Origin: Schmidtea nova
Taxonomy: Eukaryota
DNA: 64,000 bases
Assembly: GCA_044892505.1 (NCBI GenBank)
Contig: CM097883.1
Span: 314,526,001-314,590,000, forward strand
Direction of reading: 5' to 3'
The translations under genes were made by a program, and so were the position numbers. Under the pieces are notes generated by a model. The model ran no database searches, was not told the DNA's origin, and was given only the letters and a program-made list of their open reading frames with translations. Of the stretch, positions 1,473 through 64,000 are shown piece after piece (positions within the stretch are counted from its first letter, which is position 1; each line of letters starts with the position of its first letter).

Positions 1473-1565
1473 ATTTAAAAATTATATTTAATTAATATTA
1501 TTGTTTATATTTGTTTTAAATACTGGTTCTCAAAGTAATTGTTTCATTTAAAAATATTTTCAGTA

Positions 1566-4685: not shown

Positions 4686-4700
4686 ATTTTCGATGACTCT

Positions 4701-5810: not shown

Positions 5811-5831
5811 AAAATATTTTGAAAAAAAATT

Positions 5832-5988
5832 TTTGGCGCGAAAAAAAAATTTGAAAAAAATTTTTGGCGCGAAAAAAAATTTTGAAAAAAAATTTTTATG
5901 ACTCATCGATGACTCATCGATGACTCATCAAAAAAAATTCTACCCCCCGGGGTTTTTGTTCTTTTTTTCCGCCCACGCAATGAGTCAT
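5832..5988. promoter_or_regulatory. Terminal cluster of 2 E2F sites, 4 AP-1/GCN4 sites and a GC box
   Basis: TTTGGCGCGAAA at 5832-5843 and 5863-5874. ATGACTCAT at 5898, 5909 and 5920. CCGCCC at 5969. ATGAGTCAT at 5980. Confidence 0.6.
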
Positions 5989-21852: not shown

Positions 21853-21902
21853 TAGGAAGCAGTTACGAATGTAATTATAAATCCATCTCTAATTATAATC
21901 CA

Positions 21903-38037: not shown

Positions 38038-38958
38038 TTAGTTTTTTACAAAATATTTTTTTACAATAAATAACAAAAGTCTGGAGTAAAGGCCTCTAGT
38101 ATAGTAGTACCAGATTTTGGCTGAATGAGCAATATTGCTTATCATGCATTCCTTCAATAAACTCTTTATATTGTTCTCTGGGACACCCATTTTAAGTAAG
38201 AGATCAAAGGTTTTTAAATCAACTGATCCTAAAGAACCTATTATGCATGTTAGTAGTTCAATTTTGTAGTCTGGCTTAACCTTTTGTATATCTAATTTTA
38301 ATTTATTATATTTTTCTAAATTTAATTTATCAATTTTTTCAAAGTTGGAGACAGGGTCAATAGGACACTTCATGTCAATAAGAAAGATAGTCTTTTTTTC
38401 TGTGTTTGTGATTATCAAATCAACACGTTCGTTAGAGTTTGGAACTAGAAAGCACGCGTGATTAACAACTACAATTAATGCTGGATTTTTGAGCTCTTTA
38501 CAAATATTATCAAGACAGAAATTGTGACGACTAGTTGCAAGTGTCTGATTAATTTTACATTTTTGAAAAACATGTAACATTGTCTCATCTTCTAATTTAC
38601 AGCGACGACAAAGACGGTCCTCAGCACTTTTAAAAAGCTTGGCAGATGTTGAAAGTGTATTTGTCCGAGCACGATGGGTAAATTTCCATTCAAATTCAGT
38701 CAAATCACTATGGAAAATTAATTTGTTGACTAATGGGCATAGCTTTATCGCAGATATCAATAGGTTGCTGTTATTACTTTGTTCCCATTTTTCTAAGTAA
38801 GAATCTTGAATGGCAGAGTGAAGAAATTTAGATACTGCTTTCCTTAAAGTTGATAACAAGATTCTTGTACCAGTTAGAGATGTAGTAAGACGAATTGAAG
38901 GTTCACCATTAACTGTTTCAAATAGAATTTTGATATATTTATTTTGTACACAAAACAT
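38038..38958 (-). mobile_element. 3' fragment of a second NeSL/R5-type non-LTR element (CCHC + RLE)
   Basis: HRARTNTLST, CRRCKLEDETMLHVFQKC and ERVDLII..LIDMKCP. Clearly paralogous to the C-terminus of the 16458-20231 ORF. Confidence 0.88.
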
Positions 38959-39099
38959 TGATCATCATCACTATTGTAATCAACAACGTTTTACTCAAGT
39001 TATTTAATTGAGTGGGTTTTTTTTGTAAATTTTTGTTTAATTTCTTTTTCTTTTTCACCGTTAATTGGTTTTGACCTCAGGGGATACCCTTCTTCCACT

Positions 39100-41120: not shown

Positions 41121-41123
41121 CTA

Positions 41124-44100
41124 TTAGTCGTTGAAAACACTGCTATTAATTGTTTCATAAGATATATGAGCCTCCTTTCCATTAAGATGTGATATGATTT
41201 CTGAAATAATTTTGTCTTCGTTTTGCTTCTGTTTAATAATTTTCATAATATATGAACTTTCTTGTAGACTATTAATGTACCAAGTTCTGCATTTTGCCTC
41301 TTTGGCATTTTTGTTATTCATCTGACAATGAGCGCATATGGCATTATTTAAACGAGACATACCATCTGCATTTCCATGTTCTTCTCCCTTCCTATATTGT
41401 AACTCAAAATCGTATTCAGATAAATTTGCCATCCATGTCTGAAACTGCGGGCTTATTGGTTTCTTTGTCGAGTTCATAAACGTCAATGCCTTGTGATCCG
41501 TTCTGGCTACAAATTTTCTTCCATATAAATATTGTCTAAAATTTACAATAAACTCGTGAAGTGCCAAAAACTCTTTTTTAGTAACCCAATATCCCATTTC
41601 ATGTGTTGTCAAATGTCTTGAACCATACGTTTTCACTCCTTTAGTACCGTCTTCCTTAATCTGAGATAAAACTGCACCTATGGCTCTAAAACTAGCATCC
41701 GTATCAAAAATAAATAGTCGATCTGCCCTTGGAAATTCTAATATTGGTGCTTCATACAAGAGTTTCTTTAAATTGATAAAATCTTTTATACATTCTTCCT
41801 TCCAAACAATAATTTTATTGTTTCCTGTTGTTGCGGCATATAAAAGTGCTGTTATCATTGAATGATTCTTGATAATAATTAGTAAAACCTAAGAATGAAC
41901 TAAATTCTGTAACACTCTTCGGTTCAGTTGCATTTTCAATTTCTGAAATCTTTCTTTTATTTGTTCGAGTTCCATTTTCACTCACTGTATGACCAATGAA
42001 ATTTAATACGCTTTTATGGAGCGCGCCTTTCTTGGGATTCTACTTTCAAACCGGCATCTCTAATGCGTGTGAATAGACGTTTATCACGAGTTCCCTGATT
42101 TTCAGCATATATTAAAATTTTATCAAGATACACAACCACTCCTTTGAAAATTAATCCTTCCAATATCGTATGCATTAGTTTCTGAAAAGTGACAGGAGCT
42201 GTTGACACACCAAATGGTAACCTGTTAAAACATAACTGTCTTTCTATTGAATTAAATGTCGTATTTTTTGGAAATTTTCATGCAACTACCTGATAATAGG
42301 CCTGACCTAACTCAATTGATAAAAATATATTTGACTTGCCCAGACAATTCAATAATAACTGTATGTATGGAATCGGAAATGATAACTGTAGGAAGAATGT
42401 ATATTAAACAATTAATGTTGTTTTAATATTATGAAAATGTCGGAAAATAGAATTTGAAAAACGTTGTGTTTTACAATAACCTTTCTGTAACCGAATTTAA
42501 TAACCTAAAATATAGACACATCCGGTTTTTCGACTATCACTAGTGGTGTGTTCCACATACTCTGATATTTCCTTACAACTCCAGCTTCTAATAAATTCTG
42601 TATTAACTCTTCAAATTTTACTTCTAAATGCATGGGTTGTCTTCTGGGATGATCTTGTATGATCTAAGTCAAATTTGGATGCCATAAAATGTTGCTAAAC
42701 TTAGATATTAAAGTACCCAACTTGGACTTCTTGTCCAACTTCAGCGTTGATAACGCAAACTCTAACCCATCAAAATCTGTAAATTTCTTGGTAATTAACG
42801 AGGCATTTGTATAATTGACTTCTTTAAGCTCCATGCCAAATATTCTCATGGTGTCTACACATCTGGATGAATTTTTCTGACAATAATAAAATTCGATTCT
42901 CGACATTTGTTGTTCCATTTTGCAACAATTTTAACGCTTATGAGAGGTTTCTCGTCTTCTCGACCGTATTCTGCTTTCCCTCAATGTTACACTGCCAATA
43001 TTTCTCACTCACCAGACCGATTAATACTCCTGAATCCCATAGCATTTATTCATAAAATTCATTTATTTCAATCGTACTCCACTTTCTGTCATCATCCTTC
43101 TTAACCACTTTACCGGTAGACCCGAGTTAACTCGTCAAGCCAAAACCAGTTGATAACCGGTAGACCCGAGTTAACTCGTTTTATAGATTTAGTTAGTTAA
43201 CTGTTATTCGTTATTAGTTGTTCGTTATTGTTGATAACGATGATTGAAAAAAAATTAAAAAATTAAATTTTTTTATAATCGCCAATAAAGTTGCCAATTA
43301 AAGGTCGATTTCAAAAAAATGTTGACGGTAAAGGGGTTAAACATCACATCCTTCTTTCAAACATTTCGTTTTTTTATATTCATCTACTGTCTCGACCCTA
43401 CTGACGAAATGTAGACAACAGGGTCTTCTTGGTTCTTTTGAGTCTCAAAATTATGTATGACTGGGTATGTCAATTACTCTGATCTGTCATCGTCTTCTTC
43501 GTGTATACAATACACTTCGTTCCAATCGTTGTCTATTGCTTCTTGATTTTGCTAACAAATTGCAACTTCTAAATTAATGACCTTCTTTACTGCATATTAA
43601 GCACGTGTCCTACAAAGGACACTCAAATCACATATGGTCACTTTGTCTACAACAAAAGCATTGGCCAGGTCTTAACCTTTCTTCTGTGGTTCAGGTAAGC
43701 CACAAGATTTATTATAAACTTTCCTCGTGATATGTTTCATTGAAACTAACGATGGTGGTTTACTATCCGTAGTTGTGCTTTCATTATATTGTTCTACCAC
43801 AGTTGTCACTCTATCAATTTGTCTGTCGCTTCTTTCATTTTTATTTTAACGATTTGAATATATTCTGTTATTAAAAGATATTTTTGGAGTCCATTGCTTT
43901 TTTATCTTGAGCGACGTTTGCATAGGTTGATTTAACTATTGTCTGAACTTCTTTAAATCGTTCTTTTGCATCATAACTTTCTCGTGCCTCATATACCTTT
44001 GCTAAACTTCTAATCTCTTTCCTCGTAATGTTAGCCTTCGTTGATATATTTTCTTTCAAGCGATCATTCAAAACTCTGTTGCACAAAATCAGTTCAACAA

Positions 44101-48164: not shown

Positions 48165-48551
48165 GTGCTGGTGTGTTGGTTGGATTGACAACTGAGATCC
48201 TTATGATTTTATACGTTAGGGTGATCTCGCCAACATAAAAACATTCCCCCCGCTGACACCCATGATGTATCCCTAACTACTCATCATGTTGGTGCTGTGT
48301 CAACGTTGTGAAATGACAAGGCAGGTGAGCAACCTTTCGGCTACTATTCCCTTGTTTATTCACGGGTCCACCACTACCGATAGAAGGTGTCTGTGGCTTT
48401 CTTTCGGTCCCACTTATGCTCTTTTCTATTGTCCTAGGGTGATTCAATTTTATTACATCTGCGGCTTTAAATGAATCCGGGTTTTAGTTATATTCAATTC
48501 TCAGTCATTCCACAAACAAACAAGACAAGTCAAATCATTCGTTTTATACAT

Positions 48552-49115
48552 TTATTTATAGTTCAACAATACAGAGGGTCGTATTACATTTAGTAGTTCT
48601 TGCTCGGATAGACCACTGAGCAAGTCTACTTCGATTCCAAGGCGATCTGCATACGCGCGTCTCTCCCTACGCTTTTTCGCTCCCAAGCGATTCCGTCTCT
48701 TTGTTCGTTTCGAGCCTTCCAGAATGATTGGGGATGTTGGGGTAGTTGTGATTGGGATGGTTTCTATCTCCGTTTGGGTACTTGTTGTCATCGATATTGT
48801 GTCCACCCACCTATTAAAGGTGCTAGTCCTGATCACTGGGCGTAATTGCTCGGTGATAAACTCCTTGGTTGATGCCCTCAAGTAATTCGACAGCTCCATC
48901 TTTAGGGCTGCTACCTCCCTAGCTTGCTCGTCGATTGTTCGCTCCGCTCTGTATCGGGCTTGCAGGATAGTTTTAACCCTCTCTGGGTTGAACCACGTGG
49001 CTTTAATTCGCTGGTGCTCTTCGTTTAGTTGACGCAAGCGGTTTTCTAGGACTCGCGATCGTGCTTTATGCTCTTTGGCCTCTTGTTTGTAGTCCCTAGT
49101 CGGATGTTCACTCAT
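48552..49115 (-). CDS. Accessory ORF: coiled coil plus Arg/Lys-rich motif
   Basis: ATG 49115 preceded by TTTTACAGAG. Heptad-rich N-half and KRTKRRNRLGAKKRRERR. The ORF track extends to GTG 49172. Confidence 0.65.
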   Translation of the reverse strand: MSEHPTRDYKQEAKEHKARSRVLENRLRQLNEEHQRIKATWFNPERVKTILQARYRAERTIDEQAREVAALKMELSNYLRASTKEFITEQLRPVIRTSTFNRWVDTISMTTSTQTEIETIPITTTPTSPIILEGSKRTKRRNRLGAKKRRERRAYADRLGIEVDLLSGLSEQELLNVIRPSVLLNYK

Positions 49116-49306
49116 CTCTGTAAAATGTACAATTAATCGGGTTATGTATGGTTTGTCTGTTCTCTCAGTCACTATCTTTATTATTAAACCGGTGTTTCAC
49201 TCTCAGATCACTTCATGCATTCAAAGACATAACAAAACCCAAAAATTAATACATTTATTTTTAATACACCTCTCATCTTTCTTCGAATGATCGATTTCCT
49301 TGCGAT

Positions 49307-49942
49307 TTAGATGAAGGTTCGTAATTCCTGGTCGGCCGTGTTCTCGTCACGACGGATTCCACTTTCGTAGTAGAACTCCGGGGCGGGGCTCCAACTTAAC
49401 TTGTCCCGAAAGATGAATACCTCCCAGAGACGAAGGTCTTTGGGCTCGGGTTGTTGGTCCAACGAAACGCTTCCCGGCGCGTTTGAGTAGGCGAAGACTT
49501 CCCCAGTGTCGCCACACCGAGGCCTGTCTAGCAGCAGGTAACCGAGTTGATGTAGCTCTTTTCCGGACATCATTCCAGTACTTAGTAGCCAGCGGGGCTG
49601 CTGTGCTTCATCCACGAATTGGTAGAACCATCGGGGATTCTCCGGTTTGCTATGATCCGAGGAGGGTACCCAATCAGTATCTCCTTCCCACCGCAACTGT
49701 AGTCCAAACGCGCAAGCTGGGGTGCTAGCGGCTGAGCTCATGTGAGCCCTCATCCATCGTCGTAGGTGGCGACGTGATACTTCTGCGACCTTTCGAGGTG
49801 CTTCGTTCTCTCCTCTGATGTTTATGATCGTATTGGGTCGGATGACGGAGCGGGTGCGCCGTTTCTTACGAAGGATGGTGTCCTCTATCTTTATCGGGTG
49901 CGCGGTCATCGGCTTCTCTTGGAAATTCTCTAGTTTCACCAT
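49307..49942 (-). CDS. Accessory ORF, unknown function (basic N-terminus, Trp-rich globular C-terminus)
   Basis: 211-aa ATG-initiated ORF, GC-richer, with an acceptor-like TTCTTTAG upstream and AATAAA downstream. Confidence 0.65.
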   Translation of the reverse strand: MVKLENFQEKPMTAHPIKIEDTILRKKRRTRSVIRPNTIINIRGENEAPRKVAEVSRRHLRRWMRAHMSSAASTPACAFGLQLRWEGDTDWVPSSDHSKPENPRWFYQFVDEAQQPRWLLSTGMMSGKELHQLGYLLLDRPRCGDTGEVFAYSNAPGSVSLDQQPEPKDLRLWEVFIFRDKLSWSPAPEFYYESGIRRDENTADQELRTFI

Positions 49943-51014
49943 AGTATTTCTAAAGAAGATGGTTGTTTGTTAACTATGGATTCTATGGTATAACGGGCCT
50001 ATTTATATTAGTCAACCCACCCGTTATACTTAATTTTCAACACTCATGTGTAACCACTCAGCTTTAACAGTTTTTATTTATCGATAATACTATTTAATCA
50101 CATTCAATCTCATCAGTCGTTTTCAATTACTTCCTCATCTAACCAGCAATGATCATACCATGTCGGGTAATTCTCGTAAGTACCTGTGATCCGTACACGC
50201 TGGGGTTCATCATTTTATCAGTTCTCAATGCCTGTGATTTATTTATCATCTCTCTTGGCGATTAAACGCGTCTGACAGAGGTTATCGATTACCCTTAACC
50301 CTTGATACTAGGTTCACTATGCCCGAACTCGTAAGCGCTAATGTTGACATATACCTACCCTCGTCGTCACCTAATTCATCGGCACTAATATTATTCACTA
50401 CACGTCTATCCCTCGTCTAGACTTCACCGCGATATATGTCCTTCCTATAAAACGGGTTTCACTTTGCGCTCGTTTACGACTACTAGTTTATACTCGATAC
50501 CCTATCATCGTGATGTATAACGTTTACATTAGATCATCTCTACCTTGATTTCGTTCATGATCATTAGGTCTTACTCGATACCCTATGTGCATTTAACCCC
50601 TTCCGCTTTCCAAATATTTAATACACCTATGGTCCCGCCGCATCAGCACCTCACAACCGAAAGATTGTGTTGCGCTGAGAGGCCCCAAGAATCCGTCAGG
50701 CTGTTAGGCCTCCGGAAAACCTTATGGATTTTAATATGGTTATAAACAATTATGAGGGTTTAAATACATCAATAACATAACTCCAAATTACCTTTTATTT
50801 TCGCTTCGAAATCGGTATTACAACGTTTTCAGTAAGTCACAAGAGCTTACACTTGGTAAAAAATGACATATTCAAATACTGATTTTACTTCAGTATTTAT
50901 ACTGAACCGGTGTTGTTGGTTAGCCAATCAGCATCGAGTATGTGTGTTTGATCATTATTCTGTGTTGCCGGCTTTTTGCTGCCTAACTTAACTCGCCGAT
51001 TTGTTTGGTTAATC

Positions 51015-51320
51015 ATGCGGTAAGTTTATTTTTTGTACGATTTAATTTTTATTTGATTTTGCTTTAGGTCTTCGGTGACATCCGCCCACGCGCTGTCATA
51101 TTCCAATTTTTTCTGCTTCGCATGAGTGAGTTTTGAAGATTTTTGTTGTTTTGATTAATATGTTATTTCTTTTAGATGTTGCCGCCTATTTTGTTACGCT
51201 TTGGTGTTGGTAATTTATTTTGTTGTTATTCTGTATTTAATTTATTTTATTGATTGTACATTATTTTCAGATGCTGCTCGATTTGGCTGGCCCAACATCA
51301 CTCGGGGTCCCCTAAAATTG
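51015..51320 (+). ncRNA. Candidate spliced antisense transcript (three GT-AG introns of 48, 50 and 61 bp)
   Basis: Introns at 51020-51067, 51126-51175 and 51210-51270 with GTAAGT/GTGAGT/GTAATT donors and T-rich ..TAG/CAG acceptors. Only very short ORFs. Confidence 0.5.
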
Positions 51321-51499: not shown

Positions 51500-52024
51500 T
51501 CAGGTCCTTTCACTGGTTGACTGCATTTCGTATCGGGCTTGGATTTGTCGTAGATGACTTCTCATCCTTTGTTGGGTTTTTGCTTCTCTTTTGGCGCATC
51601 TACACATTATCGTTTGTTGTTGTTTGAGGCTTCTGATTCGGTATAGGGTATACGTAATCACGATGATCAGGATGATTGTCAGTATTGTCATTGTGACTAT
51701 TCCCACGATGATCCATCTGTTTCGGATTTCGGATTCGATTTGGGTTTGACCTTTGATTGGCTTTAGGTGATCTTGAAAGGTTTTATGGATTTCTCGGATC
51801 TTCTCGATTTGATCGAATAAGGTTTGTAAGGGTTTGCGATGATCATGACTGATTCGCATTTGTCGGATTAATTGTTTCAAGTCTTCTCTGACTTCGTTTA
51901 ATTGTTTTTCGATCTCCTGGGATATCTCATTTGACGGGGTTCTTTGGATTTCGGTTGTCGTACAGTTCGTGATTGCTGCTGTTAACATAATAGTTAGGAT
52001 TGGTAGGGTTTTGAGCCAGTTCAT
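51500..52024 (-). CDS. Accessory type I membrane protein (signal peptide, coiled coil, TM, basic tail)
   Basis: MNWLKTLPILTIMLTAAITNC signal, heptad ectodomain, TM WIIVGIVTMTILTIILIIVITYTLY. Confidence 0.75.
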   Translation of the reverse strand: MNWLKTLPILTIMLTAAITNCTTTEIQRTPSNEISQEIEKQLNEVREDLKQLIRQMRISHDHRKPLQTLFDQIEKIREIHKTFQDHLKPIKGQTQIESEIRNRWIIVGIVTMTILTIILIIVITYTLYRIRSLKQQQTIMCRCAKREAKTQQRMRSHLRQIQARYEMQSTSERT

Positions 52025-52097
52025 TTCTGATTATTCCACTGATTAATACATGTTACATCGATTTGTACATTTTTATACACGGATTTTTCGCCTCTTT

Positions 52098-53258
52098 TTA
52101 CACATCCGTCTCCTCTGGTTCATGGAACCCTTCATCTTGGAGTTCCATTGGTGGTGGTGGTATAAACGGTAACCACACCACTCTGCTTCGCCACATTGCA
52201 ATTTCATCTTGATACGTTCGAGAGATTTGTATCTCTTCGTCTAACAGATACTCCATGTAGTCTGATTGTTCGCTCAGAGTTTCAATTTGTCTTTCCATCT
52301 CTTCCACTTTTCTCTTCAGGGCTTCTACTTCTGTTGGTTCGGTTTCTATTTCTCGGGTTTCTTTCTCTGCTTTCAGGGTTATTATCTGCTGTTTCAGTTC
52401 CTCATTTTCTTTCGTCAAGTTCGTTATATTTTCCTCATAAGCTCGGTTTGATTCCGCATGCCTTTCTTTCACTGCTTTCAACTCCATTTTCTTTTGGGTC
52501 ACCACCCCTTGATAACCATTTACATCTCTTTCCAGGCTTTCTTTTTCCCTGATCAACTTTTGTCTTTCCGCTTCCTCTTTTTGTCTAATGCCTCGCATTT
52601 CTCCATTTATCATCTGTATTTGCCATTGCGTTTTCTTTAGTTCCTTTGCTTGCTCTCGAATAAATCGTTGCCGTTTTCGACTCCATTCTTTGTTTGCTTG
52701 TTCTTGTCGCTTTCTCTGTTCCAATTCCTCTTTCAATTCGTCTATCTCTTGATACAGTTTCCAATCTTCGCTGTATGCTGTCTTTCTGATTATCTCTTTG
52801 GCTTCTTTATACACTCGTTTAGACTCCATCTTCCAATGTCTCGCTTGAGCCTTGATAGCTAGTATTTTTACCTCCATCTTTTCCTCTTGTTTCTCCCTCT
52901 CTTCTCTTCGCGTTTTCATCATATTTTTATAATGTTCTGCTTGTTTCCTCATCAACTGATAGACATCTTCTATCTTCTGTCGACTTCGTACATTCGTTCC
53001 TTTTAGCTTCTCTATTTGTGTTGTCAGTTGTACTATCTCTTTATTCACTTCCTCGAGTTCTAGTTGGTATAACTCCATTCGTCTCTCGCATTTTAGTTTC
53101 TCGTAGTAATTATTTGTCATCACTTCGTGTAATTCTCTGGTTCTTTGTTCTACTTCCATTTTACATCTCCTTTCGATTTCTCTTTCTATTGTTTCTTGTT
53201 CGTTCAACATCTCGCTTCTCGTTTCATCTTCGATTCCATGTTCATTTGCGTTTTCCAT
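52098..53258 (-). CDS. Accessory long coiled-coil (SMC/myosin-tail-like) protein
   Basis: 386 aa of continuous E/K/R-rich heptads with a C-terminal PPPP. Confidence 0.75.
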   Translation of the reverse strand: MENANEHGIEDETRSEMLNEQETIEREIERRCKMEVEQRTRELHEVMTNNYYEKLKCERRMELYQLELEEVNKEIVQLTTQIEKLKGTNVRSRQKIEDVYQLMRKQAEHYKNMMKTRREEREKQEEKMEVKILAIKAQARHWKMESKRVYKEAKEIIRKTAYSEDWKLYQEIDELKEELEQRKRQEQANKEWSRKRQRFIREQAKELKKTQWQIQMINGEMRGIRQKEEAERQKLIREKESLERDVNGYQGVVTQKKMELKAVKERHAESNRAYEENITNLTKENEELKQQIITLKAEKETREIETEPTEVEALKRKVEEMERQIETLSEQSDYMEYLLDEEIQISRTYQDEIAMWRSRVVWLPFIPPPPMELQDEGFHEPEETDV

Positions 53259-53347
53259 TCTGTAATTTACAAATTTACACTTGTTATACTATATGTTTAT
53301 TGTTGTCGTCGATTTTTACACTTTATTTACAGGGTCGTTCACTCTGA

Positions 53348-54760
53348 CTACTCTAACCATCCTTTCGTTGACTTCGTGTTCATCACTGTTATACTTGCTT
53401 TCTTCTCGATTTCCAATTCTACGTATAGGTTGTCGTCGTACAACATTTCCCACATTGTTTGGTGTGGTATGAATTTTGGTTCTCCAGTCGCTAATGAACA
53501 TTCTGTGGTTGGTCTTTTGTAAGCTTCGTGCTTACCATCAATTTTGAATATTCTCGCTATTGTTTCTTTCGAGTTTCTCACTCTCATTATAGCCTTTGTT
53601 TCTAGTGGCCATTCTAATATGTCGTCGTAACCACCTTTACACAACGCAAAGAATAATGACACATGCGTTTCCTTTCCTGATCCATCTCCATTTGGATAAA
53701 TTCTCATCCGGACTTTGTATCCGTTTTTCCACAGATAGAATGGTGGACTTGTTACCGACACTTGACTTCCTGCTTTTGCTGCTGTGAACTTTTCGTTGAA
53801 GTTCTTGATTTTCCATATATATGGTGCAACAGGTAAACTCTCGATATCCTCCGCATCTCGTATCCACATTTGATGTCGCACGTTTACTTCTTTTACCAAT
53901 GTCTCTATGACTTTGATTTTCTCCATCATTTTCTCTCTGGTGAGCTCGAATTGCTCTCTCGTTTCCAGTAATAACTCCGTCATTATCCTCTGAGATTCAA
54001 TTTCTTTTCCCAGTTTCTGTATGGTTTGTTCCATTCCGTTCAAATTTTCTGTTAGCATCTCGGCGTGTTGTACCGTTTCCGTTTCCAAATGCTCTTTCAT
54101 CTCTTTGTTCGTTTTCTTTACTGCACATCCTTGTTTACTCCATACGCACTTTCTTGGTCTTGATTCGCATTGTTCCCAGTGTTCTCTCAACATCACTTCT
54201 TCTCCGGTTCCGCAATTACTTGGACAAATTCCTCTGAATTTTCCACACACTTTCTCTTCTGCTACGTTGAGATGTTCATTTTCGATTACTTCTCTCGTCT
54301 CTCTTTGTTCGCAGTATTGACACTCTATTATCTCTGCTTTGCACTCATCCTTGTGCTTTTTCGACTGCTTGATGGTTATCGTCTGTTGACACTTTTCACA
54401 TATCGCTTTCTTGTTTTCGCATTTTCCTAGATGTTGTCTTAGCTCGATTATTTGTCCTTTCCATTCACAGGGTTGGTTTATACATTCTGTTTTTATCTTC
54501 CAGATCTCCTTTTGTATTGCTTTGTCGGGTTTTGTCTCGTTGATCAGTAGTTTATCGTCGCACTCTGGGCACTTTCTTGTCTCACTTTCACTGATTATTT
54601 GTAGTATACACTTGGTGCACATCCTGCATCCACATTCCGTTTGTCTCGGTTTTAACATTAAATTTTTACACTTTACACACGTCACATTTACTCCCCATTG
54701 TCGATTCTCTCCTCTTAGAATCTCGATTGTTTGGTAATCTGCTTCGCTTTCTGCTCTCAT
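53348..54760 (-). CDS. TRAF: TNF-receptor-associated factor (RING, TRAF zinc fingers, coiled coil, MATH), intronless
   Basis: CVKC..CGCRMCTKC..CPEC RING, several CxxC..H..C fingers, and MATH YIWKIKNF..SPPFY..GYKVRMRIYPNGDGSGKETHVSLFF..GGYDDILEWP. Confidence 0.93.
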   Translation of the reverse strand: MRAESEADYQTIEILRGENRQWGVNVTCVKCKNLMLKPRQTECGCRMCTKCILQIISESETRKCPECDDKLLINETKPDKAIQKEIWKIKTECINQPCEWKGQIIELRQHLGKCENKKAICEKCQQTITIKQSKKHKDECKAEIIECQYCEQRETREVIENEHLNVAEEKVCGKFRGICPSNCGTGEEVMLREHWEQCESRPRKCVWSKQGCAVKKTNKEMKEHLETETVQHAEMLTENLNGMEQTIQKLGKEIESQRIMTELLLETREQFELTREKMMEKIKVIETLVKEVNVRHQMWIRDAEDIESLPVAPYIWKIKNFNEKFTAAKAGSQVSVTSPPFYLWKNGYKVRMRIYPNGDGSGKETHVSLFFALCKGGYDDILEWPLETKAIMRVRNSKETIARIFKIDGKHEAYKRPTTECSLATGEPKFIPHQTMWEMLYDDNLYVELEIEKKASITVMNTKSTKGWLE

Positions 54761-54849
54761 TCTACAACAATATTTACATCAATTTCCCCATATTTTTGAT
54801 TTTTCTGGTTCTTTATTTACACGTATTTACACAATTTTCCGCTTATTCA

Positions 54850-55326: not shown

Positions 55327-58300
55327 CTATACAATCACCACGGGTTTTCCTTCGTACAGTTCTTCGTCCTCGATCTGTACCCACATCTCTTCATGTCTTG
55401 ATCGTCTTTTCAGTTCTTCTCGTACTTCTTTTGGTAGTTTTATGTTATAATTCATGACCTTTACGTCTGGCCATTTTACTGCTATGGTCTTATTTCTCAT
55501 GCCATATCTCCAACATACTATCATGACCATTATCAGTGGAATACACGCTATGAATACTCCCATGCTGATTAATCCCATTATTGTTTTCCCAATGCTCATC
55601 TTCGGAGTTTCACTTTGGTTTGTCATCACGCCATATTGACCTTTCCATTCTGCTTCCCATTGTTCATATTGTTGTTGTCTCTGTCTGACTTCTTCGATCA
55701 CTTTCTCGGGTTCCCATCTTTCTTGTTGATTTTGTAGTATTTCCTCCGTCTCTGTTTGTTCTCTTTTCTGACTCAATTCTCGGAATTCTAACTTGCGGGT
55801 TCCCCCTTTTATCGTTATGTTCCTTGGCGTGTAATAGGTTTCGCACCTTTCTTGTTGATTTCCTTGTGCGTCTACTTCTTCGATTGCACACACTTCGTAT
55901 TCTGCGTTTGTTTTCAACCTCCTCATTTCTACCTCGATTATTTCCCTTTTGTCATTTGATGTCTTTTGACAGTTTCGTGGAGACTCTCTCATACTGTTTG
56001 GCATTAATGTCCAACAGATTTCTAGGACCTTTTTATGGATCTTCCATATTATCAGAGTCGTTGATTCCGGTTCGTTTTTTATTGACGTCCCTTCTGTTGT
56101 CTGTTGAGTTCCTTGACTGTTGGTTGTCGTGGTTCTTCTTGACTTTCTTTTCCTTTGTCGACTTCCTCCCATTTCGATCGTTCTTGTACCGTTAATTTGC
56201 TCTGGCGTCTTGTACAGTCTGCACTCCAGGCTTCTTTGTATTACTTCTCTTATTCTTCGGATTACGCAAATTTCGTAAGCTTGTCCGACTTCGAATCCAT
56301 TTAGTTGAAACGGGATTCCTCGTTCTCTCGTTCTGCATTGCGGTATTATGATGTTGGTCGGTATTCCGATGTATTTTCTCCAACACATCCCAATTGTTCT
56401 CCGACCAATGTTTTTTATCTCCACGGTTACTACTTCATTCGCAATCATTTCTTGATCTTGTTTCTTTCTTTTTGGGAACTCAATTATCTCCTTTGCTTGG
56501 AACACTTTACACTCGCTTGTTCCTGGTCTGTTTCCGTTTGCTGCTTTTTCCATGAGGCATAGTTCACATGTTTTCTCTGTTTCCATTTCAGTTATCTCGA
56601 TTTCCTCGTTTGTCTCTGCCTCTCGACTTTCTCTTGTTTCGCTGATTCCAATTACCTCATTGTTTCGTCCCCAACATCTTCCGTTCGTTGTTCGTTGGTC
56701 TTGGATATTTACTAACGTCATCACGCTGATATCTATGTCCTCTATGATTCTCTTAATGAGGATTAATATTAATGCTACACATATCAATTCTGGTTGGAAT
56801 GTTAATTTGCCCGCTGGATTTTTGGTTATTCTTTCTTTCTCTGTTCGGTTTCTGATTCCCTCTTCTGCTTCGGTTTGATTCTCCCCTTTCTCTGGTTCCA
56901 CTTCTGTTCTTCTCGTTGTCTCTTCGCTTCTTTTCTCAATCCATTTCTGTATCTTCAGCGCTTCTGTTGCTTTGTATAGTTGACATGCAGTTACTTGAGG
57001 TGCTTTTGGTTCTCCTCTCTGCTTTACTGCGCATATTATGTATGACTTTTCTTTCTCCAACCCTTTGATTTGGATGACGTCTCGCTTCAAATCTGACAAT
57101 ATACACTTCAGCGTATCGTTTTTCCCCAGGTTTTCTTTCCAGCATATTCTTTCGTATACTTCATTTCCTCTAATTATCTCTAGCGTGACGTATTGTTTCT
57201 TGGCTTCTCCTTGTCCGATGATTGTTAACAATATCGCAATACACAACATTTCCGGTCTTAAAAGTAGACTTCCTGTTCGTTTTCCATAGTTCGTACTTTC
57301 GTCTTTTGTTCCTCTGTTTTCTCGTTCTTCGGCTTCTCCTTTCTTGTCGTTTCTCGTTGGCTTCGGTTCTTCTTGTCTTTCTTTTTCATTATCCTCCGTT
57401 CTTTTGTTGTCATTGTCTTCGTTGTTCTCTTCGTTGTTACTTTTGTCGTCGAAGTCTTTGTAACCACCCCCTGGTCCTTTGAAAATGTCGTCCTCGACAT
57501 TAATTTCTTCAATCAATCTTTCATACGCTTGAACCGCGAGTGTGCTAGACTCGAATTCACGTATTTCCATATCCTTAGATGGTTCTATGTCTTCTAGTCT
57601 ACTTTGCTTGATTGCTCCTTTGGCATTTGCCCATTCATTCACATATTTTCTGAACAAGTCTTTCCATCTTCCCGTTCGTTCCTGTTCCTTTGGATTGTTC
57701 GTGAATTTCAAATCTCTTCTCTTCAGGAATTCTTCAACTATCTCTGGCTTTTTGTGTCTTAATAACGCGCTTCTGATACACCAATTCTGATTCTGTTCCA
57801 TATGGTCATTGATCTTGAACGTTGGTTCCTTGGTTATCGGATTCACCCATGTTAGTAATGCTCTCGTTTTCTCTATGTCGTGTATCATTACTGTTAGACT
57901 GAAGTTCTTTACGTTATTCGCCAGGTATTCGATATCGTCTTGCTTCTTGATGGACTTTATGAACTTGATCATCTCGAAGTTGTTCCACTGTATTGCGATG
58001 TCTATGATGGAATTATTCTTTCCATTTTTCCCTTCGATTTTTGCTCCTGCTTCGTATAACTCGTTTAGCACTTTGCAGTTCGTCTTCTTCCTCGCTGCGA
58101 TTATCATGATTGTGTCTCCGTTATCATCAACCGTGTTCATGTCTGCTTCGCATTTGACCATCGCTTTCGTTATTTCCAGCACTTCGTTTTCTTTCTTTCG
58201 ACGTAATGCCCAGTGTATCGGTAGTCTTCCATCCTTTGATAAAAGGAATGCTACTGGCATTTGGTTCTTGATCGTTTCTATGTCACTCTCGTTATAATCC

Positions 58301-61300
58301 CCTTCTGCATATCTGTGCACTTTCTCTGTAATTGTTCCTAGTATTTCCAACGAATTTTTATTCTCTTTGAATTCCGATAATTTTTCCTGTGCTTTTGCTA
58401 CGATTGCGTCTAATCTCTCTTGATAATCGGCTTTTGCATTGAACAACACTGCTTTGCTTCTTATTCGTGTTTGCATCTGTTTCATCCGTTGGTCTTGATA
58501 TACTGCTTGTCTGAAGAATTGTCCATAATTCAATGCTTCCACCAGCTCTTTATATCGCTTGCTTATTTCTTTGTGCTGCTTTTGGATGTCATAGAAATGT
58601 TCGAAACTCATATCCGGATTCCATTGCTTATCGCCCCATTTCTTGATTAATCCGAATAATTCTTTCTTTCTGTCTTCCAACTTGTATTCTCTTGGGTTCT
58701 CGCTGACCCGTAGCGTATCTCTCGCTATCAACACTGCAAGTGTTTTTGGATCGTATGTTACTTCTAGTAGATGTTTCAGTAACGCATTTTCCCCCCTTGT
58801 GAATACTTCATTACAATTTACGACCCACGAATCTCCTTCTGGTCGTTTCCACTTTAGCAGTATCCTCCAGGTTTTACTGTTCTTTACCTCGATTGCTTGT
58901 TTCATAATCGATCTTCTGGTTAGTTCATCGATTTCCCACGTGGCATTCTCTGTGATATACTTCAGTATTCGGTGATTCGCTCTATCAATTGCATGATTCA
59001 AGAACGTTCGTCCTTCTTTATCTTTTGTCATCCAATTCGATCTGGTGTTTCCGAATAGCTTGATTATTTCATCGTTTCTTCCGTGAATCGTCATCATCAT
59101 AAGTGGAGTAATTCCTTCCCAGTTCACTTTGTCAATTTCTCCTCCACCTTCGAGTATCATTTCTACGATCTCCTTCACTTTCTCGTTTCCACTGTGCTTG
59201 ATTGCATTATGTAACGCGGTATTACCATCTTTGTCTTGTAGATTCAATGTCTGAGGGATCTCCTCTAGCAGCGTCCTTGTTATTGGATGTGCTGTTCTAT
59301 CCTTAGCATACTCCATTACATTCTTTCGAACTTCTGACAGTATATTGAAATCGAACCACCATTTCCATTCTGGTATGATTTCTCTGGTCCTCTTTGCCAG
59401 TTCTTTGATGTCTATTGCTTCTCTTCGATTGTCTTCTAGACTTGTTTGCGGCTTTTGTTGTACTCGCAACATACTGATTCTCGCCGTCTGTGATCTTGTC
59501 ATTACCCGTTTCTCTGGTGATAGAGTTGCTGTATTTGGTATTTTCCTGCATCGACATGCATTCACGTATATTGGTCTTACCAATGGATTGTTCACCAATC
59601 GTACTCGCACATTGTTTTCGTTTACGGTTGTTATTTCGTATGGCCCTTTGCCTGGTCGTTGGAGTTTCTTGACCGTACCGGGTATTATCTCTGGTGTTTC
59701 GATTATCACCCAATCTCCAACTTTTAAATCATGTGCTTTCACGTTCCTTTTCTGATCATGTAGATCCTTATAACTTTCTTGATAGAACTTGATGTTTAGT
59801 TCCGCCGTTTTCCAGATCTCTTGCATTCTTTCTTTGAACTTCGTCACGTAATCGTCAACCTCCATGTACTGTGATAATGGTGGTTGGTATTCTAAATCGA
59901 TCGGTAAGTTGCAATCTCTTCCGTACATCAGTTGAAATGGACTTAGCTTTGTTGCCGCATGTATTGACATTCTATATGCCATCAAACACAAGTTGATATA
60001 CTCGTCCCAGTCAGTCTGATGTTTACTGACGTAATTCGACAACATGCGTATCAATGTTCCATTGAACCTTTCCGTTTGACCGTTCGTTTGTGGATGGTAT
60101 GGGGATGTTCGTAATTTCGCAATTCGGAAGTAATTCGTAACTTCGTCTAATATTTCACTCATGAAATTCGTTCCTTGATCCGTTAGGATTTTCTTTGGTG
60201 TTCCGTATCTGCAGCATATTTCTTCCACCAATATTCTCGCGACTGTTTTCGCCTTTTGATCCGGTATTGCGAATGCTTCTGGGAACTTTGTTAGATAGTC
60301 CGTGACTACTAATATGTATTGATTTCCCTTCAAACTTTCCGGCAATGGTCCAACTACATCCATTGCTATTGTTGCCATTGGTTCTGCAGGTATTGGCATA
60401 GGTTTTAGTGGTGTTTTCCACTTTGCTCCGACGTTCTTTCTTGTCGCACAGGTTAAGCAGTTCTTTATCCATTCTTTCACATCATCTTCCATGGTTGGCC
60501 AAAAATACTTTTGTCTCAATCTCCCGATTGTCTTTTTCGCTGACATGTGTCCGCCTAATTTTCCGTCATGATATTGAGTCATGATTTCCTTTCGCCTATT
60601 CGCAGGTAAGCACATCAATCTCCGTTCTCCATCTTGTATCAATAACCATCCTTTTTCCATCACATATCTATGTTGATATTTCTGCATATGTTCGCGTAAC
60701 GTTTGGTTCTTGCCGAATATTTCCATTTCCCTTTCTTTCAGATACTTGCTGATCAATCCCAACTCCTCATCTTCGAGTTGATCTTTCCTTAATTCGCTGA
60801 AATCCAAATCTTCCGCTATTAATGCACATATTTTTTGAGCATTCAGGTTCACCAATTCTGGAAATGTAAACCTTGACATGCAATCCGCGTTTGCATTTGC
60901 TTTTCCTGCTTTAAACTTTATGAATGGCGAGTATTCTTGTAACTGCATTGCCCAACGCATCAATCTACTTGATGATTCTTTATGTTGGCCTAACCATACC
61001 AATGGTTGATGATCCGTCGTGATATATATTTCATGACCCCACAGCAGGTACTTGAAATGCTTGATTGCTAATATTATCGCATAGGCTTCTCTTTCTGTGA
61101 CTGAGTAATTCCTTTCATGTTTTCTGAACGTTCGACTATAATATCCGATTACTCTCTCTTTGCCTTCTTCATCAAATTGGCCTAGTACTGCTCCTGCTGC
61201 GTATCCACTTGCATCTGTTGCCAACAAAAATGGCTTCTTAAAATCTGGGTGGACCAATATTGGTGCTGTAATCAGCTTGTCCCGTAATGTCTCAAATGCT

Positions 61301-64000
61301 GCTTGCTGTTCTGTTCCCCACACAAACGATACATCTTGTCTTACCAATTCTTGCATTGGCTTTGATATTCCTACATAGTCCTTGATAAACTTTCGATAAT
61401 ATCCACACAATCCCAAAAATTCTTGTATTTGAGTCACTGTCTTTGGTGGTGGACATTCTTTGACTTTTTCGATATTCCTTGGGTCTGGTTCTTTTCCTTT
61501 TGCTGATACAATGTGACCTAAGAATGTCACTTTTTCTTTTGCCCAATCGCACTTTGACGGCTTTAATTTCAGTTTCCACTGTCTCAATTTCACGAACACA
61601 TTTCTGATGTCTTGCAAGTGATCTTCGAATGTTGCGGAGTAGATCAATAGATCGTCGATATACACCATGCATTGTTTTATGCCATGTGTTACGAAATTCA
61701 TGCATCTCTGGAATGATGCTGGCGCGTTTGTTAACCCAAACGGCATTTTCTTGAATTGGTACAGATCTCGTCCGATTGTAAATGCTGTCTTTTCTTTATC
61801 CTCATCTTTCATTTTGATCTGCCAATATCCGCTTTTTAAATCTAGTGACGTGAAATAAGCTGCTCCTTGTAACGTCAACAACATTTCGTTTATGTCTGGC
61901 AGTGGGTACGTATCTCTTTTCGTAACTGCGTTCAATCGTCTGTAATCGATACAGAATCTCTGAGTTCCATCCTTCTTTTTCACCATCACCACTGGGAATT
62001 GCCAGGGTGAGCAACTAGGTTCGATGACCTCTGCATCTAACATCTTTTGTACCTCTTCTTCTGCTACTGCTTTTTGAGCTTCTGCCAGTTTATATGGTCT
62101 TAATGCGATTGGCGTTTCGTCCGTCAACGGTATCGTGTGCAATGTTACATCACATGTTCCTAAATCCAAATCTGATGCTGCGAATATATCTTTATATTCC
62201 ATCAACAGTTTCTGTAACTGTTCTTTTTGTCGTTCGTCTAACAACACACTGTCGATTTTCCATGGTAATTCGTCTTTGCTTTTCTCGTTCTTGTCTGGTA
62301 TTTCGATTTCGGACATGGGTGTCAATTTACCCAATCTCTCATTCTCATATATTATCTTGTCCTCTTCGTCGAAGTTCACCAGATTGATCGGTATTTCTCC
62401 TTCTTGGTTTATCGTGACCAATTCTCTTGCCATTGGTAATTCTTTCTTCACTTCGAACTTCTTACTTGGTTCGAATACCATATCTCCTTTTATTGTCGAA
62501 TCGATCTTGACGTAGCACATCATTTCGTGTCTCGCTGGCACTACTATTTGTTCCGCACTTGCCACTTTAACTTTCATTCTGCAGATTTTTCCTGTTCTGT
62601 CTTTTAGCTTCATTGCTCCTAGATCAATTACGATTTCCTTGAACAGGTCTGGCATCAGGTCAGTTCCAATAATACATGGTACACTCAGCGATGGTATTAC
62701 AGCGATGTACGTGTTGATCTCTGCACCTCGATGCTTAATTTTTACAAACCATCTTCCGGCTACTTCTACTGTCTCCTGACTGCACGCGATTACATGTACA
62801 TTCGTTTTCTCAATTTCTCCTTGGTTTTTCTCGGGTATATAGTTAATGTCGATTGCCGAAATATTCGCGCCTGTATCGATCATAGCTTCAATTTCTCTGC
62901 CATTTATTTCTACGGTTGTTGTTAAGATCGGTCCCATATTTGTGGACATAACCGCTATCGTGTGCGTGTCTTCCAACGAGTTTACGCTTCCGCCTCGTTT
63001 TACTTTGCATCCTTCGGGAATTATCGGGTATATACTTGTCATCGGCATCATCTGCCTCATATTCGGCTTCGCTTTATATATCGGTTCGTTATACATTGAT
63101 TGGGGTGGAGCACTGTATCTCCAATTCTCAACCGCACTCTTTTCGGTATATTGTGGAATCTGGTTTATATTCGCTTGTCCTCCTCGATCGTCATCATCAT
63201 CTTCATCATTGCTTGAATCATCTTGCGTTCGATATCCTCTCACTCTTTCCCATAATCCTTTCCTTTCCTTCTTCAGTTGTCGCCTTGCTTGTTCGTCTTG
63301 TATTATCTTTTTGAATTTCCTTCCAACATCTTCATTTGTTCCTTTCATTTTCGCAAGTATCTTCAACAACCTCTTTATTCGATGTATGTCTTTTGAGTGT
63401 CCGTGTAACACCATCGTTTTCGCAAGGAATGGTAAAAACCCTACTACCATTTTCCAATTCACTTTCTTTTCTCTCTTGTAGATGTCGAAACACGCTAACA
63501 TTTGAGTTATTATCACTCTGACGATTTGTATTATCAGTATAACCCCCAGTATTCCAGCCATCATTTGTCCAAATATCAGGAATCTTCCCCACATTGCCTT
63601 CATCATATTTTCTGTGGCTTTCTTGAAATGTGCCGGTGACAACAACAGTTCGTAATTCGGTCCTTCTCGATAATTCGTTCCTCCCGTTATTGTTACGATA
63701 TTTGACAGTAATGCTTCTCTTCTTGCCGGGAATAATATATTCTGCCTTGCCGCTTCTAAATCTTTTGGACTATAGATTCCGTTGTTTGAGACATCTACGT
63801 CACTGAACTGTCTATCCTTTGACAACTGCATTAGCTCAAATTCTCTTGGTGCTAATACTTCAGTTCTTCCTGGGAACATAACCCATTTGCCATCTGGCTT
63901 CTGATAAAGCGGTCCGTACGCATTACTACAGTTGAATGGATTTGGTTCAAAACTTGGTGGATTGATGATTCTCGTCACCGGTTGAACGTATCGTACTTTT
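55327..64000 (-). CDS. Polyprotein: env-like glycoprotein C-terminus/TM, PR, RT, RNase H, IN, ankyrin repeats, FN3-like modules, TM
   Basis: Open to the window edge (KVRYVQPVTRII..). AMIDTGANIS (62877), FCIDYRRLN, VYIDDLL (61662), LATDASGY, YHDGKLGGH..CLTC, MDVVGPL/TDQGTNF/ERFNGTL, QDKDGNTALHNA and C-terminal TM IMGLISMGVFIACIPLIMVMIVCW. Confidence 0.92.
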   Translation of the reverse strand, partial: KVRYVQPVTRIINPPSFEPNPFNCSNAYGPLYQKPDGKWVMFPGRTEVLAPREFELMQLSKDRQFSDVDVSNNGIYSPKDLEAARQNILFPARREALLSNIVTITGGTNYREGPNYELLLSPAHFKKATENMMKAMWGRFLIFGQMMAGILGVILIIQIVRVIITQMLACFDIYKREKKVNWKMVVGFLPFLAKTMVLHGHSKDIHRIKRLLKILAKMKGTNEDVGRKFKKIIQDEQARRQLKKERKGLWERVRGYRTQDDSSNDEDDDDDRGGQANINQIPQYTEKSAVENWRYSAPPQSMYNEPIYKAKPNMRQMMPMTSIYPIIPEGCKVKRGGSVNSLEDTHTIAVMSTNMGPILTTTVEINGREIEAMIDTGANISAIDINYIPEKNQGEIEKTNVHVIACSQETVEVAGRWFVKIKHRGAEINTYIAVIPSLSVPCIIGTDLMPDLFKEIVIDLGAMKLKDRTGKICRMKVKVASAEQIVVPARHEMMCYVKIDSTIKGDMVFEPSKKFEVKKELPMARELVTINQEGEIPINLVNFDEEDKIIYENERLGKLTPMSEIEIPDKNEKSKDELPWKIDSVLLDERQKEQLQKLLMEYKDIFAASDLDLGTCDVTLHTIPLTDETPIALRPYKLAEAQKAVAEEEVQKMLDAEVIEPSCSPWQFPVVMVKKKDGTQRFCIDYRRLNAVTKRDTYPLPDINEMLLTLQGAAYFTSLDLKSGYWQIKMKDEDKEKTAFTIGRDLYQFKKMPFGLTNAPASFQRCMNFVTHGIKQCMVYIDDLLIYSATFEDHLQDIRNVFVKLRQWKLKLKPSKCDWAKEKVTFLGHIVSAKGKEPDPRNIEKVKECPPPKTVTQIQEFLGLCGYYRKFIKDYVGISKPMQELVRQDVSFVWGTEQQAAFETLRDKLITAPILVHPDFKKPFLLATDASGYAAGAVLGQFDEEGKERVIGYYSRTFRKHERNYSVTEREAYAIILAIKHFKYLLWGHEIYITTDHQPLVWLGQHKESSSRLMRWAMQLQEYSPFIKFKAGKANANADCMSRFTFPELVNLNAQKICALIAEDLDFSELRKDQLEDEELGLISKYLKEREMEIFGKNQTLREHMQKYQHRYVMEKGWLLIQDGERRLMCLPANRRKEIMTQYHDGKLGGHMSAKKTIGRLRQKYFWPTMEDDVKEWIKNCLTCATRKNVGAKWKTPLKPMPIPAEPMATIAMDVVGPLPESLKGNQYILVVTDYLTKFPEAFAIPDQKAKTVARILVEEICCRYGTPKKILTDQGTNFMSEILDEVTNYFRIAKLRTSPYHPQTNGQTERFNGTLIRMLSNYVSKHQTDWDEYINLCLMAYRMSIHAATKLSPFQLMYGRDCNLPIDLEYQPPLSQYMEVDDYVTKFKERMQEIWKTAELNIKFYQESYKDLHDQKRNVKAHDLKVGDWVIIETPEIIPGTVKKLQRPGKGPYEITTVNENNVRVRLVNNPLVRPIYVNACRCRKIPNTATLSPEKRVMTRSQTARISMLRVQQKPQTSLEDNRREAIDIKELAKRTREIIPEWKWWFDFNILSEVRKNVMEYAKDRTAHPITRTLLEEIPQTLNLQDKDGNTALHNAIKHSGNEKVKEIVEMILEGGGEIDKVNWEGITPLMMMTIHGRNDEIIKLFGNTRSNWMTKDKEGRTFLNHAIDRANHRILKYITENATWEIDELTRRSIMKQAIEVKNSKTWRILLKWKRPEGDSWVVNCNEVFTRGENALLKHLLEVTYDPKTLAVLIARDTLRVSENPREYKLEDRKKELFGLIKKWGDKQWNPDMSFEHFYDIQKQHKEISKRYKELVEALNYGQFFRQAVYQDQRMKQMQTRIRSKAVLFNAKADYQERLDAIVAKAQEKLSEFKENKNSLEILGTITEKVHRYAEGDYNESDIETIKNQMPVAFLLSKDGRLPIHWALRRKKENEVLEITKAMVKCEADMNTVDDNGDTIMIIAARKKTNCKVLNELYEAGAKIEGKNGKNNSIIDIAIQWNNFEMIKFIKSIKKQDDIEYLANNVKNFSLTVMIHDIEKTRALLTWVNPITKEPTFKINDHMEQNQNWCIRSALLRHKKPEIVEEFLKRRDLKFTNNPKEQERTGRWKDLFRKYVNEWANAKGAIKQSRLEDIEPSKDMEIREFESSTLAVQAYERLIEEINVEDDIFKGPGGGYKDFDDKSNNEENNEDNDNKRTEDNEKERQEEPKPTRNDKKGEAEERENRGTKDESTNYGKRTGSLLLRPEMLCIAILLTIIGQGEAKKQYVTLEIIRGNEVYERICWKENLGKNDTLKCILSDLKRDVIQIKGLEKEKSYIICAVKQRGEPKAPQVTACQLYKATEALKIQKWIEKRSEETTRRTEVEPEKGENQTEAEEGIRNRTEKERITKNPAGKLTFQPELICVALILILIKRIIEDIDISVMTLVNIQDQRTTNGRCWGRNNEVIGISETRESREAETNEEIEITEMETEKTCELCLMEKAANGNRPGTSECKVFQAKEIIEFPKRKKQDQEMIANEVVTVEIKNIGRRTIGMCWRKYIGIPTNIIIPQCRTRERGIPFQLNGFEVGQAYEICVIRRIREVIQRSLECRLYKTPEQINGTRTIEMGGSRQRKRKSRRTTTTNSQGTQQTTEGTSIKNEPESTTLIIWKIHKKVLEICWTLMPNSMRESPRNCQKTSNDKREIIEVEMRRLKTNAEYEVCAIEEVDAQGNQQERCETYYTPRNITIKGGTRKLEFRELSQKREQTETEEILQNQQERWEPEKVIEEVRQRQQQYEQWEAEWKGQYGVMTNQSETPKMSIGKTIMGLISMGVFIACIPLIMVMIVCWRYGMRNKTIAVKWPDVKVMNYNIKLPKEVREELKRRSRHEEMWVQIEDEELYEGKPVVIV

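Follow-up and report, generated by a model that had tools for sequence, protein, structure and literature searches.

A predicted FN3-type membrane protein at the end of a giant Gypsy-type polyprotein of Schmidtea nova

Genes and features of the locus

The window analyzed here, a stretch of 64,000 nucleotides of the Schmidtea nova genome (assembly GCA_044892505.1, contig CM097883.1, forward-strand positions 314,526,001 to 314,590,000), contains the 3' portion of a young 29.1-kb Burro-like Gypsy element. The outer ends of its LTRs lie 29,126 bp apart, and both LTRs measure 3,132 bp. The features of the element in the window are as follows.

55327..63999, minus strand: giant polyprotein ORF, 3' part, comprising the C-terminal part of env, protease, reverse transcriptase, RNase H, integrase, ankyrin repeats and the C-terminal cassette; extends past the window
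63520..63582, minus strand: env transmembrane helix, a predicted stop-transfer segment bringing the chain back to the cytosol; env matches PF24664
60091..62919, minus strand: protease, reverse transcriptase, RNase H and integrase core (residues 361-1303, Pfam)
57955..59256, minus strand: ankyrin-repeat region, with the best Pfam stretches at residues 1582-1626 and 1929-2015
53348..54778, minus strand: accessory ORF, TRAF-like (RING, zinc fingers and MATH, Pfam)
52098..53288, minus strand: accessory ORF, charged, probably coiled-coil; no Pfam family over the cut-off
48166..51297, minus strand: 3' LTR of 3,132 bp, with four differences from the 5' LTR (L012:1160-4291), TG...CA ends and a 4-bp target duplication

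All of the motifs quoted in the preliminary description occur in one open frame on the minus strand (55327-63999), which codes for 2,890 amino acids within the window. Its Pfam domains follow the order of a Monjiviricetes-type fusion glycoprotein, protease, reverse transcriptase (RT), RNase H, integrase (IN) and ankyrin repeats, while its last 870 residues match no Pfam family over the cut-off. The gag region with its zinc knuckles (zf-CCHC, E 8e-10) and the remainder of env (PF24664, E 1.4e-72) are found in the adjoining DNA, and the gene order of the element is gag-env-pol-ankyrin, with a pol of the Ty3/gypsy type. The polyprotein ORF of the window copy is split into two parts of 1,366 and 3,674 amino acids, the break being at the end of the gag part; an uninterrupted frame of 5,076-5,114 amino acids was counted by eye in 27 of the 150 copies scored. 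The C-terminal cassette is joined with env, pol and the ankyrin repeats in a single reading frame.

The element carries several smaller ORFs as well. Each LTR contains two, both some 215-220 codons long and having a YAG just ahead of their ATG (window 48552-49196 and 49307-49969, minus strand, and the same in L012), neither of which matches a Pfam family over the cut-off. Immediately inside of the 3' LTR lies a small accessory ORF (window 51500-52030, minus strand), also present in a related family, termed family B, at L089:2027-2632, where it resembles a short signal-helix-TM protein. Upstream, the accessory ORF at L012:143-613 (minus strand) carries a RING at its C-terminus (PF13920, E 5e-9) and does not match BIR. 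A word that was taken by eye to be BH2-like lies at about 2250-2400 of L011 (minus strand), some 40 residues ahead of the env signal, and L087 and L088 show the same spacing. The env signal may therefore double as an anchor for a BCL2-like domain; the element ORFs that were searched gave no BCL2 match in Pfam or among PDB sequences.

Elsewhere in the window, an array of a 15-bp unit (4666-5901), open in three frames, is a simple repeat, and an ORF at 849-1481 (minus strand) is P-loop ATPase-like, by eye similar to a packaging ATPase of Polintons. Non-LTR retroelement ORFs occupy 16458-22390 (minus strand) and 38038-38961, with a reverse transcriptase and a C-terminal restriction-like endonuclease recognized by eye and a protease-like ORF before them. 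Other Gypsy-type gag-pol pieces are located at 32655-36493 (plus strand) and 40444-41888 (minus strand), the part at 40444-41082 being similar by eye to the pol of another related family, family C.

The C-terminal cassette and the predicted fold of its modules

The end of the frame is arranged in the order S1, module A, linker, S2, modules B, C and D, stalk, transmembrane (TM) helix and a tail of 60 amino acids.

57202..57264, minus strand: S1 (residues 2246-2266), a predicted internal signal peptide that ends in G-E-A
56962..57201, minus strand: module A, FN3-like, four Cys (module alignment)
56803..56961, minus strand: charged linker with two N-glycosylation sequons (sequence)
56749..56802, minus strand: S2, paralogue of S1, 11 uncharged residues, conserved Cys, then K-R (residues 2400-2417)
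56488..56736, minus strand: module B, FN3-like, without the second Cys of the other modules (module alignment)
56200..56445, minus strand: module C, FN3-like, four Cys (module alignment)
55822..56076, minus strand: module D, FN3-like, four Cys; used for the fold model (alignment and model)
55585..55821, minus strand: stalk, 51% identity with family B (alignment)
55510..55584, minus strand: transmembrane helix (residues 2806-2830), 25 uncharged residues, basic C-terminal flank (hydrophobicity)
55327..55509, minus strand: tail of 60 amino acids with a conserved acidic-tyrosine motif, and stop codon (tail alignment)

The preliminary description had placed two related hydrophobic segments before three modules. 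The two segments are indeed related, yet module A precedes S2; likewise, the three modules were found (57204-56962, 56445-56200 and 56076-55822), but a fourth, module B (56736-56488), had been missed, although it bears the same invariant C-W, C and C. The terminal helix (55584-55510) and the 60-residue tail are present as described, and the basic residues on the C-terminal side of the helix support a type I anchor. The alignment of S1 with S2 has a z of 6.4 and that of S1 plus module A with S2 plus module B a z of 11.5, the score being reached in none of 2,000 shuffles; this register indicates the duplication of a unit made up of a signal and a module. Between the modules themselves, z is 2.2-8.3 in the six pairs, the weakest of them (B-D) being matched by 3.2% of 1,000 shuffles. 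Throughout 38 module sequences of 11 types, the C-W and two further cysteines are invariant, and the fourth Cys is missing in the B type.

S1 recurs in 29 and S2 in all 30 of 30 close copies, and both segments are also found in family B. Across the cassette the pN/pS ratio is 0.19 (0.07-0.36 by part), as calculated for the 26 of these 30 copies with an open frame, the other four being dropped; the 30 copies had been chosen for their high scores to modules C-D, so that pN is biased downward in this part. The cassette is under purifying selection.

The four modules are predicted to be related domains of the FN3-type beta-sandwich, as the preliminary description had proposed for three of them. 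A model of module D, built from the 38-row module alignment, has a mean pLDDT of 84 and forms an all-beta sandwich of six strands with no helix, superposing on FN3. When it was compared with 48,161 chains, FNIII, fibronectin or tenascin stood in the titles of all of the 14 best, with Z values of 8.1-7.5 and rmsd of 2.5-3.8, the top match having a Z of 8.1 and an rmsd of 2.7 across 76 residues; a Z of 7-8 is weak by itself, being also typical for models without a clear match. A profile of the modules retrieved 72 proteins at E<=0.001, 68 of which have Pfam fn3 among their top five families; these matches are summed weak domain scores, each of at most about 13 bits, in proteins with tandem FN3 domains. 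Many of them have partner domains of bacterial type, and the few animal-like ones share the Cys pair of the last strands. The unanimity of the 14 best chains, together with the independent profile search, suggests that the modules behave like FN3 domains.

In Pfam, all modules stayed below the cut-off for fn3, the best E being 0.047 (3 of 38 members), as did the whole ORF, and Foldseek with the module D model listed mostly FN3 chains, none at E<=0.001; a viral structure library held no match to the model at the same threshold. A single-sequence model of modules C and D had a pLDDT of 35, and the ESM Atlas leads for the two modules were FN3 clusters at 0.86-0.88. Word-index protein searches found only ankyrin proteins and no relative of the cassette, and the module alignment matched nothing. 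Against PDB sequences, a single sequence gave one irrelevant match and the profile three leads at E 1.4-2.1 (contactin-4 twice and PPP1R29). A Pfam match of module D to MIT_ATG1 (E 0.0012, below the cut-off) was rejected, as the model contains no helix.

The modules share a beta-sandwich, an L-x(5)-Y-x-x-C...C pattern and the placing of tandem modules ahead of a TM helix with animal FN3-repeat surface proteins whose last two strands carry a Cys pair (the ELFN2 FN3 domain, PDB 9y2f, a weak match, and the profile matches P0013 and P0069) and with the FN3 proteins found by structure (sDscam, tenascin, fibronectin). They differ from their structural matches in sequence (8-18% identity) and in having an additional C-W...C pair. 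The 85-residue module D model, which begins 20 residues ahead of the C-W, has six strands compared with the seven (A-G) of FN3, and aligns from about the second strand of these matches; module A leaves no room for a further strand after the S1 site. When the modules are aligned with their FN3 sequence matches, the C-W lies in the middle strand of the latter, and its tryptophan is presumably other than the usual one of strand B. As for a host donor, the module profile compared with 15 of 108 host fn3 loci stayed within noise (best E 0.098).

Related families and membrane topology

Comparison with related elements extends the picture beyond the close copies, designated family A. Family B, 40% identical over the cassette and with frames of about 5,650-5,690 amino acids, contains in one frame S1-A-S2-B-C-D-TM followed by S1'-A'-S2'-B'-C'-TM'-tail, i.e. 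four plus three modules; the loci with this double cassette are L080, L089 (G000:C2:448638001-448648000) and L090-L092, while another copy (L044) has one cassette only, with the tail attached. A search with the env family disclosed two further families, C and D, with frames of 3,401 and 3,393 amino acids, whose RT and IN are 53% and 58% identical to those of the element. Following the IN, they code for a clear signal, a sequon-rich ectodomain of 320 amino acids, a TM helix and a short tail, with no ankyrin repeats. The ESM Atlas leads for the family C ectodomain were FN3 clusters at 0.88-0.90, and the module profile matched neither the family C nor the family D polyproteins. A predicted layout of signal, ectodomain and anchor is common to all four families.

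Between families A and B the tail shows 42-48% identity (L046 and L047 were left out of its alignment), with an invariant W-x-Q-I-E-D-E-E-x-Y-E. All four families end with an acidic tyrosine motif and a terminal Val, and the E-T-F-V ending of families C and D fits a class I PDZ motif. The end of the long ORF of these two families was read at L078:5400-6692 and in L079, with 98 candidates scored and 100 matches for family C. The ORF that follows their polyprotein (L078:7086-8537 and L079:6950-7945) resembles by eye a DEDD-type exonuclease and has no Pfam match at E<=0.5.

Seventeen hydrophobic segments of the four families were compared by means of an insertion scale (dG, without position weights). 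In seven TM helices the uncharged residues number 21-27 and the dG is -6.8 to 0.8. The corresponding figures are 12-19 and 2.8-7.9 for the env signals and S1-type segments, and 11 and 5.4-8.1 for the S2-type segments of three cassettes, S2' being at 8.1. S1 itself has 14 uncharged residues, and its 19-residue dG of 3.8 is to be compared with 2.9 for the element's own env signal. It combines a basic n-region, a short hydrophobic core and small residues at -3 and -1, a combination that S2 does not show. Among 30 close loci S1 was found in 29 copies, of which 28 end in G-E-A; among 18 family B loci it was found in 15, of which 14 end in S-Q-G; and the signal of families C and D ends in A-x-A or T-N-A in all six loci; S1' of family B ends in E-E-A, with an acidic residue at -3, in 14 of 15. 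The suggestion that S1 acts as an internal signal is therefore likely, given its G-E-A site and its hydrophobicity, similar to that of the env signal and unlike that of the TM helices.

The same role does not appear to extend to S2, for which it had also been proposed. Two consecutive signals need a return between them to open the translocon, and therefore one of the two must be idle as a signal. If S1 is used, S2 would be approached from the lumen, and it has only 11 uncharged residues. Where it aligns with the S1 site, position -1 or -3 is acidic in nearly all copies. Each cassette most likely crosses the membrane twice, at S1 and at the TM helix, because a crossing at S2 would invert the second cassette of family B, which keeps the same cysteines; S2 itself probably does not cross. 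The charges around TM1 of family B (net -3 before and +4 after) and around S1' (+5 before and 0 after) fit an out-to-in passage and then an in-to-out one. Sequons number six in the segments between S1 and S2 compared with 2.2 in shuffles (P 0.017), and ten between S2 and the TM helix compared with 8.7 (P 0.38), but this test is weak, since no enrichment is seen in the env ectodomain that served as its positive control (1 of 25 Asn). S2 is nevertheless the best-conserved part of the cassette between families (57% compared with 24-49% for the modules), has a pN/pS of 0.07, and is left without an explained role when a single product is assumed. In two of three cassettes the number of cysteines from S2 to the TM helix is odd when that of S2 is not counted; the S2 Cys may pair with the odd one of module B, or S2 may mark a second cut.

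A probable surface protein after pol: interpretation and alternatives

The type of element is already known. Burro, or GYPSM1, comprises giant Gypsy-like LTR retrotransposons of planarians, considered possible proviruses (PMC6431247), and the present element shares with them a length of about 30 kb, a single ORF of about 5,000 amino acids, CCHC knuckles in Gag, an env in frame between gag and the protease, ankyrin repeats and MATH/TRAF (PMC6431247). It differs in that its TRAF domain is encoded by a separate downstream ORF, the likeness being one of described features; and where Burro has BIR and BCL2-like motifs, a RING in the upstream ORF, no BCL2 match and the BH2-like word recognized by eye are seen here. 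FN3 domains, an internal signal or a membrane anchor following the integrase and ankyrin repeats are not mentioned in the Burro section of that paper (PMC6431247). RNAi of smedwi-2 in planarians increases BURRO1 RNA (PMC8532177). The available text on the GAG-ENV-POL errantiviruses of Platyhelminthes with HSV/gB-type env describes the same gene order and env class, the class being assigned here from the PF24664 match and pairwise identities, and the family C env stretch closely resembles by eye its Smed_errantivirus_1 row (PMC13524379). This source deals with env and pol; as available, its main text contains 'Fibronectin', 'Burro' and 'ankyrin' 0 times, and its supplements 'fibronectin' and 'FN3' 0 times.

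For a glycoprotein encoded behind pol in the same polyprotein, Atlas virus is a known example. According to the sections available, Atlas virus and the nematode belpaoviruses encode a Gag-Pol-Env polyprotein in which the protein following pol has a C-terminal anchor, like the cassette; there, however, it is the fusogen (phlebovirus-like GN/GC), whereas here the fusogen precedes pol and the protein after pol is a second one, of FN3 type (PMC9094657). Rotifer elements have small TM-bearing ORF3s as separate ORFs, and 'fibronectin' occurs 0 times in the text available (PMC5408684). No description of an FN3 membrane protein after the integrase was found in this literature; the primary Burro paper, Repbase entries and the figures of the papers may annotate the region. 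The cassette is a real and selected part of a known kind of element, probably hitherto undescribed.

The preferred reading, which is given an even chance, is that the cassette yields one type I surface protein freed by signal peptidase, probably the attachment partner of the fusogen. Following the env anchor, about 2,090 residues would be made in the cytosol, after which S1 would reopen the ER translocon and be cut after G-E-A2266. Modules A-D would then enter the lumen and form disulfides, S2, too short for stop transfer, would remain lumenal, and the last helix would stop the transfer, leaving the 60-residue tail in the cytosol. This much, from the reopening and cut at S1 to the stop at the last helix, is judged quite likely. 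The product of about 620 amino acids, made 1:1 with Gag and Env, would reach the cell surface or the particle membrane and bind a neighbouring cell, the least certain of these steps; given the cut and topology proposed, arrival and binding are considered somewhat more probable than their failure. Tandem FN3 ectodomains are typical of adhesion proteins. The role of attachment partner is favoured because one ORF gives Gag, Env and the FN3 protein in equal amounts and because the ectodomain is of the adhesion type.

With the same topology and cleavage, the product might target the host cell rather than serve particle attachment: it would be a decoy or mimic of a receptor, signalling by way of its tail, beside the TRAF-like and RING genes. 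This is a rather unlikely but serious alternative: the conserved tail with its acidic tyrosine and the C-termini ending in Val fit signalling as well as attachment, a TRAF-like ORF directly follows the polyprotein, and domains of apoptosis and ubiquitin pathways are prominent in Burro (PMC6431247). The tail motifs could equally sort the protein to budding sites, however, and genes for host regulation are mostly in ORFs of their own with YAG before the ATG (8 of 9 types of accessory ORF), whereas the cassette is tied 1:1 to Gag and Env; moreover, families C and D have a cassette but neither an ankyrin region nor a TRAF ORF following it in the stretches read. Another proposal is that S2 is a second processing site, cut by signal peptidase on an in-plane helix or by a convertase at the conserved K-R, to give module A with the linker and B-C-D-TM as separate pieces. 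The in-register kinship with S1, the low pN/pS of 0.07, the K-R after S2 in all copies listed and the Gly of family B in register with the S1 site agree with such a cut, and non-canonical signal-peptidase sites are reported for viral polyproteins in the portions available of PMC3937272 and PMC5010249. Yet all 30 close family A copies have Asp or Glu at the position concerned, S2 is uniformly hydrophobic rather than amphipathic, and its Cys could serve to pair with the unpaired one of module B (the count being odd without it in two of three cassettes), so that a second cut is regarded as unlikely. It is still harder to accept S2 as a stop-transfer helix that leaves only module A in the lumen and modules B-D in the cytosol. 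S2 does have the most hydrophobic 11-residue core of the window ORF, immediately followed by K-R, the sequons after it (among them those at N2603, N2727 and N2794) are not enriched, and the linkers around modules B-D are strongly basic; but by the dG estimate a stretch of 11 residues is too short, and that of S2' is weaker still (8.1). Modules C and D keep the four cysteines of module A, the basic flank of the final TM helix is C-terminal to it, and a crossing at S2 would turn the tandem cassette of family B upside down, all of which make this reading extremely improbable.

The mode of release has its own alternatives. Were S1 an uncleaved signal-anchor, the ankyrin repeats, S1, the FN3 modules, the TM helix and the tail would form a two-pass receptor-like protein, freed from the integrase by the viral protease, as might be suggested by the ankyrin region lying directly upstream in frame and by S1', which is without a small residue at -3. 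This is thought very unlikely: with 14 uncharged residues and a dG of 3.8, S1 would be a poor stable anchor, the small residues at -1 and -3 are kept in families A, B, C and D, and in families C and D the signal occurs without ankyrins. A slightly smaller probability still is assigned to the cassette being made mainly from a spliced message starting at S1 (Met2251) or S2, which would make re-entry of the polyprotein into the ER unnecessary. In its favour, 8 of 9 types of accessory ORF have a YAG that precedes their ATG by 1-7 nt, a CAG stands 2 nt ahead of Met2251 in 14 of 29 family A copies, and family B has CCA-GAA at the position of this CAG in all 15. Against it, in the remaining 15 of the 29 close copies, that of the window included, a silent change gives CCG and thus no CAG, and CCA makes up 66% of the Pro codons of the ORF; there is, in addition, no Met at the start of the hydrophobic core in S1 and S1' of family B or in families C and D, and no stop between pol and the cassette in intact copies. 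Release from the polyprotein therefore appears to be the better reading.

Returning to the type I surface protein as the preferred product, a wider and more tentative proposal, considered possible although less than even, is that env-bearing retrotransposons of planarians cut the two proteins of an entry system from a single polyprotein, with a class III fusogen on the N-terminal side of pol and a separate, fast-evolving FN3 protein for attachment on its C-terminal side. The number of modules and cassettes would be tuned by tandem duplication (four here, four plus three in the sister family), and there would be four to six crossings of the ER membrane, with pol kept in the cytosol, in the manner of RNA-virus polyproteins. 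The present reading accounts for about 640 residues left unannotated in the literature found. If it is true, one ORF of an LTR element supplies separate proteins for attachment and for fusion, and the conserved second surface protein would provide a specific antigen and a product size to be sought in particles and on cells.
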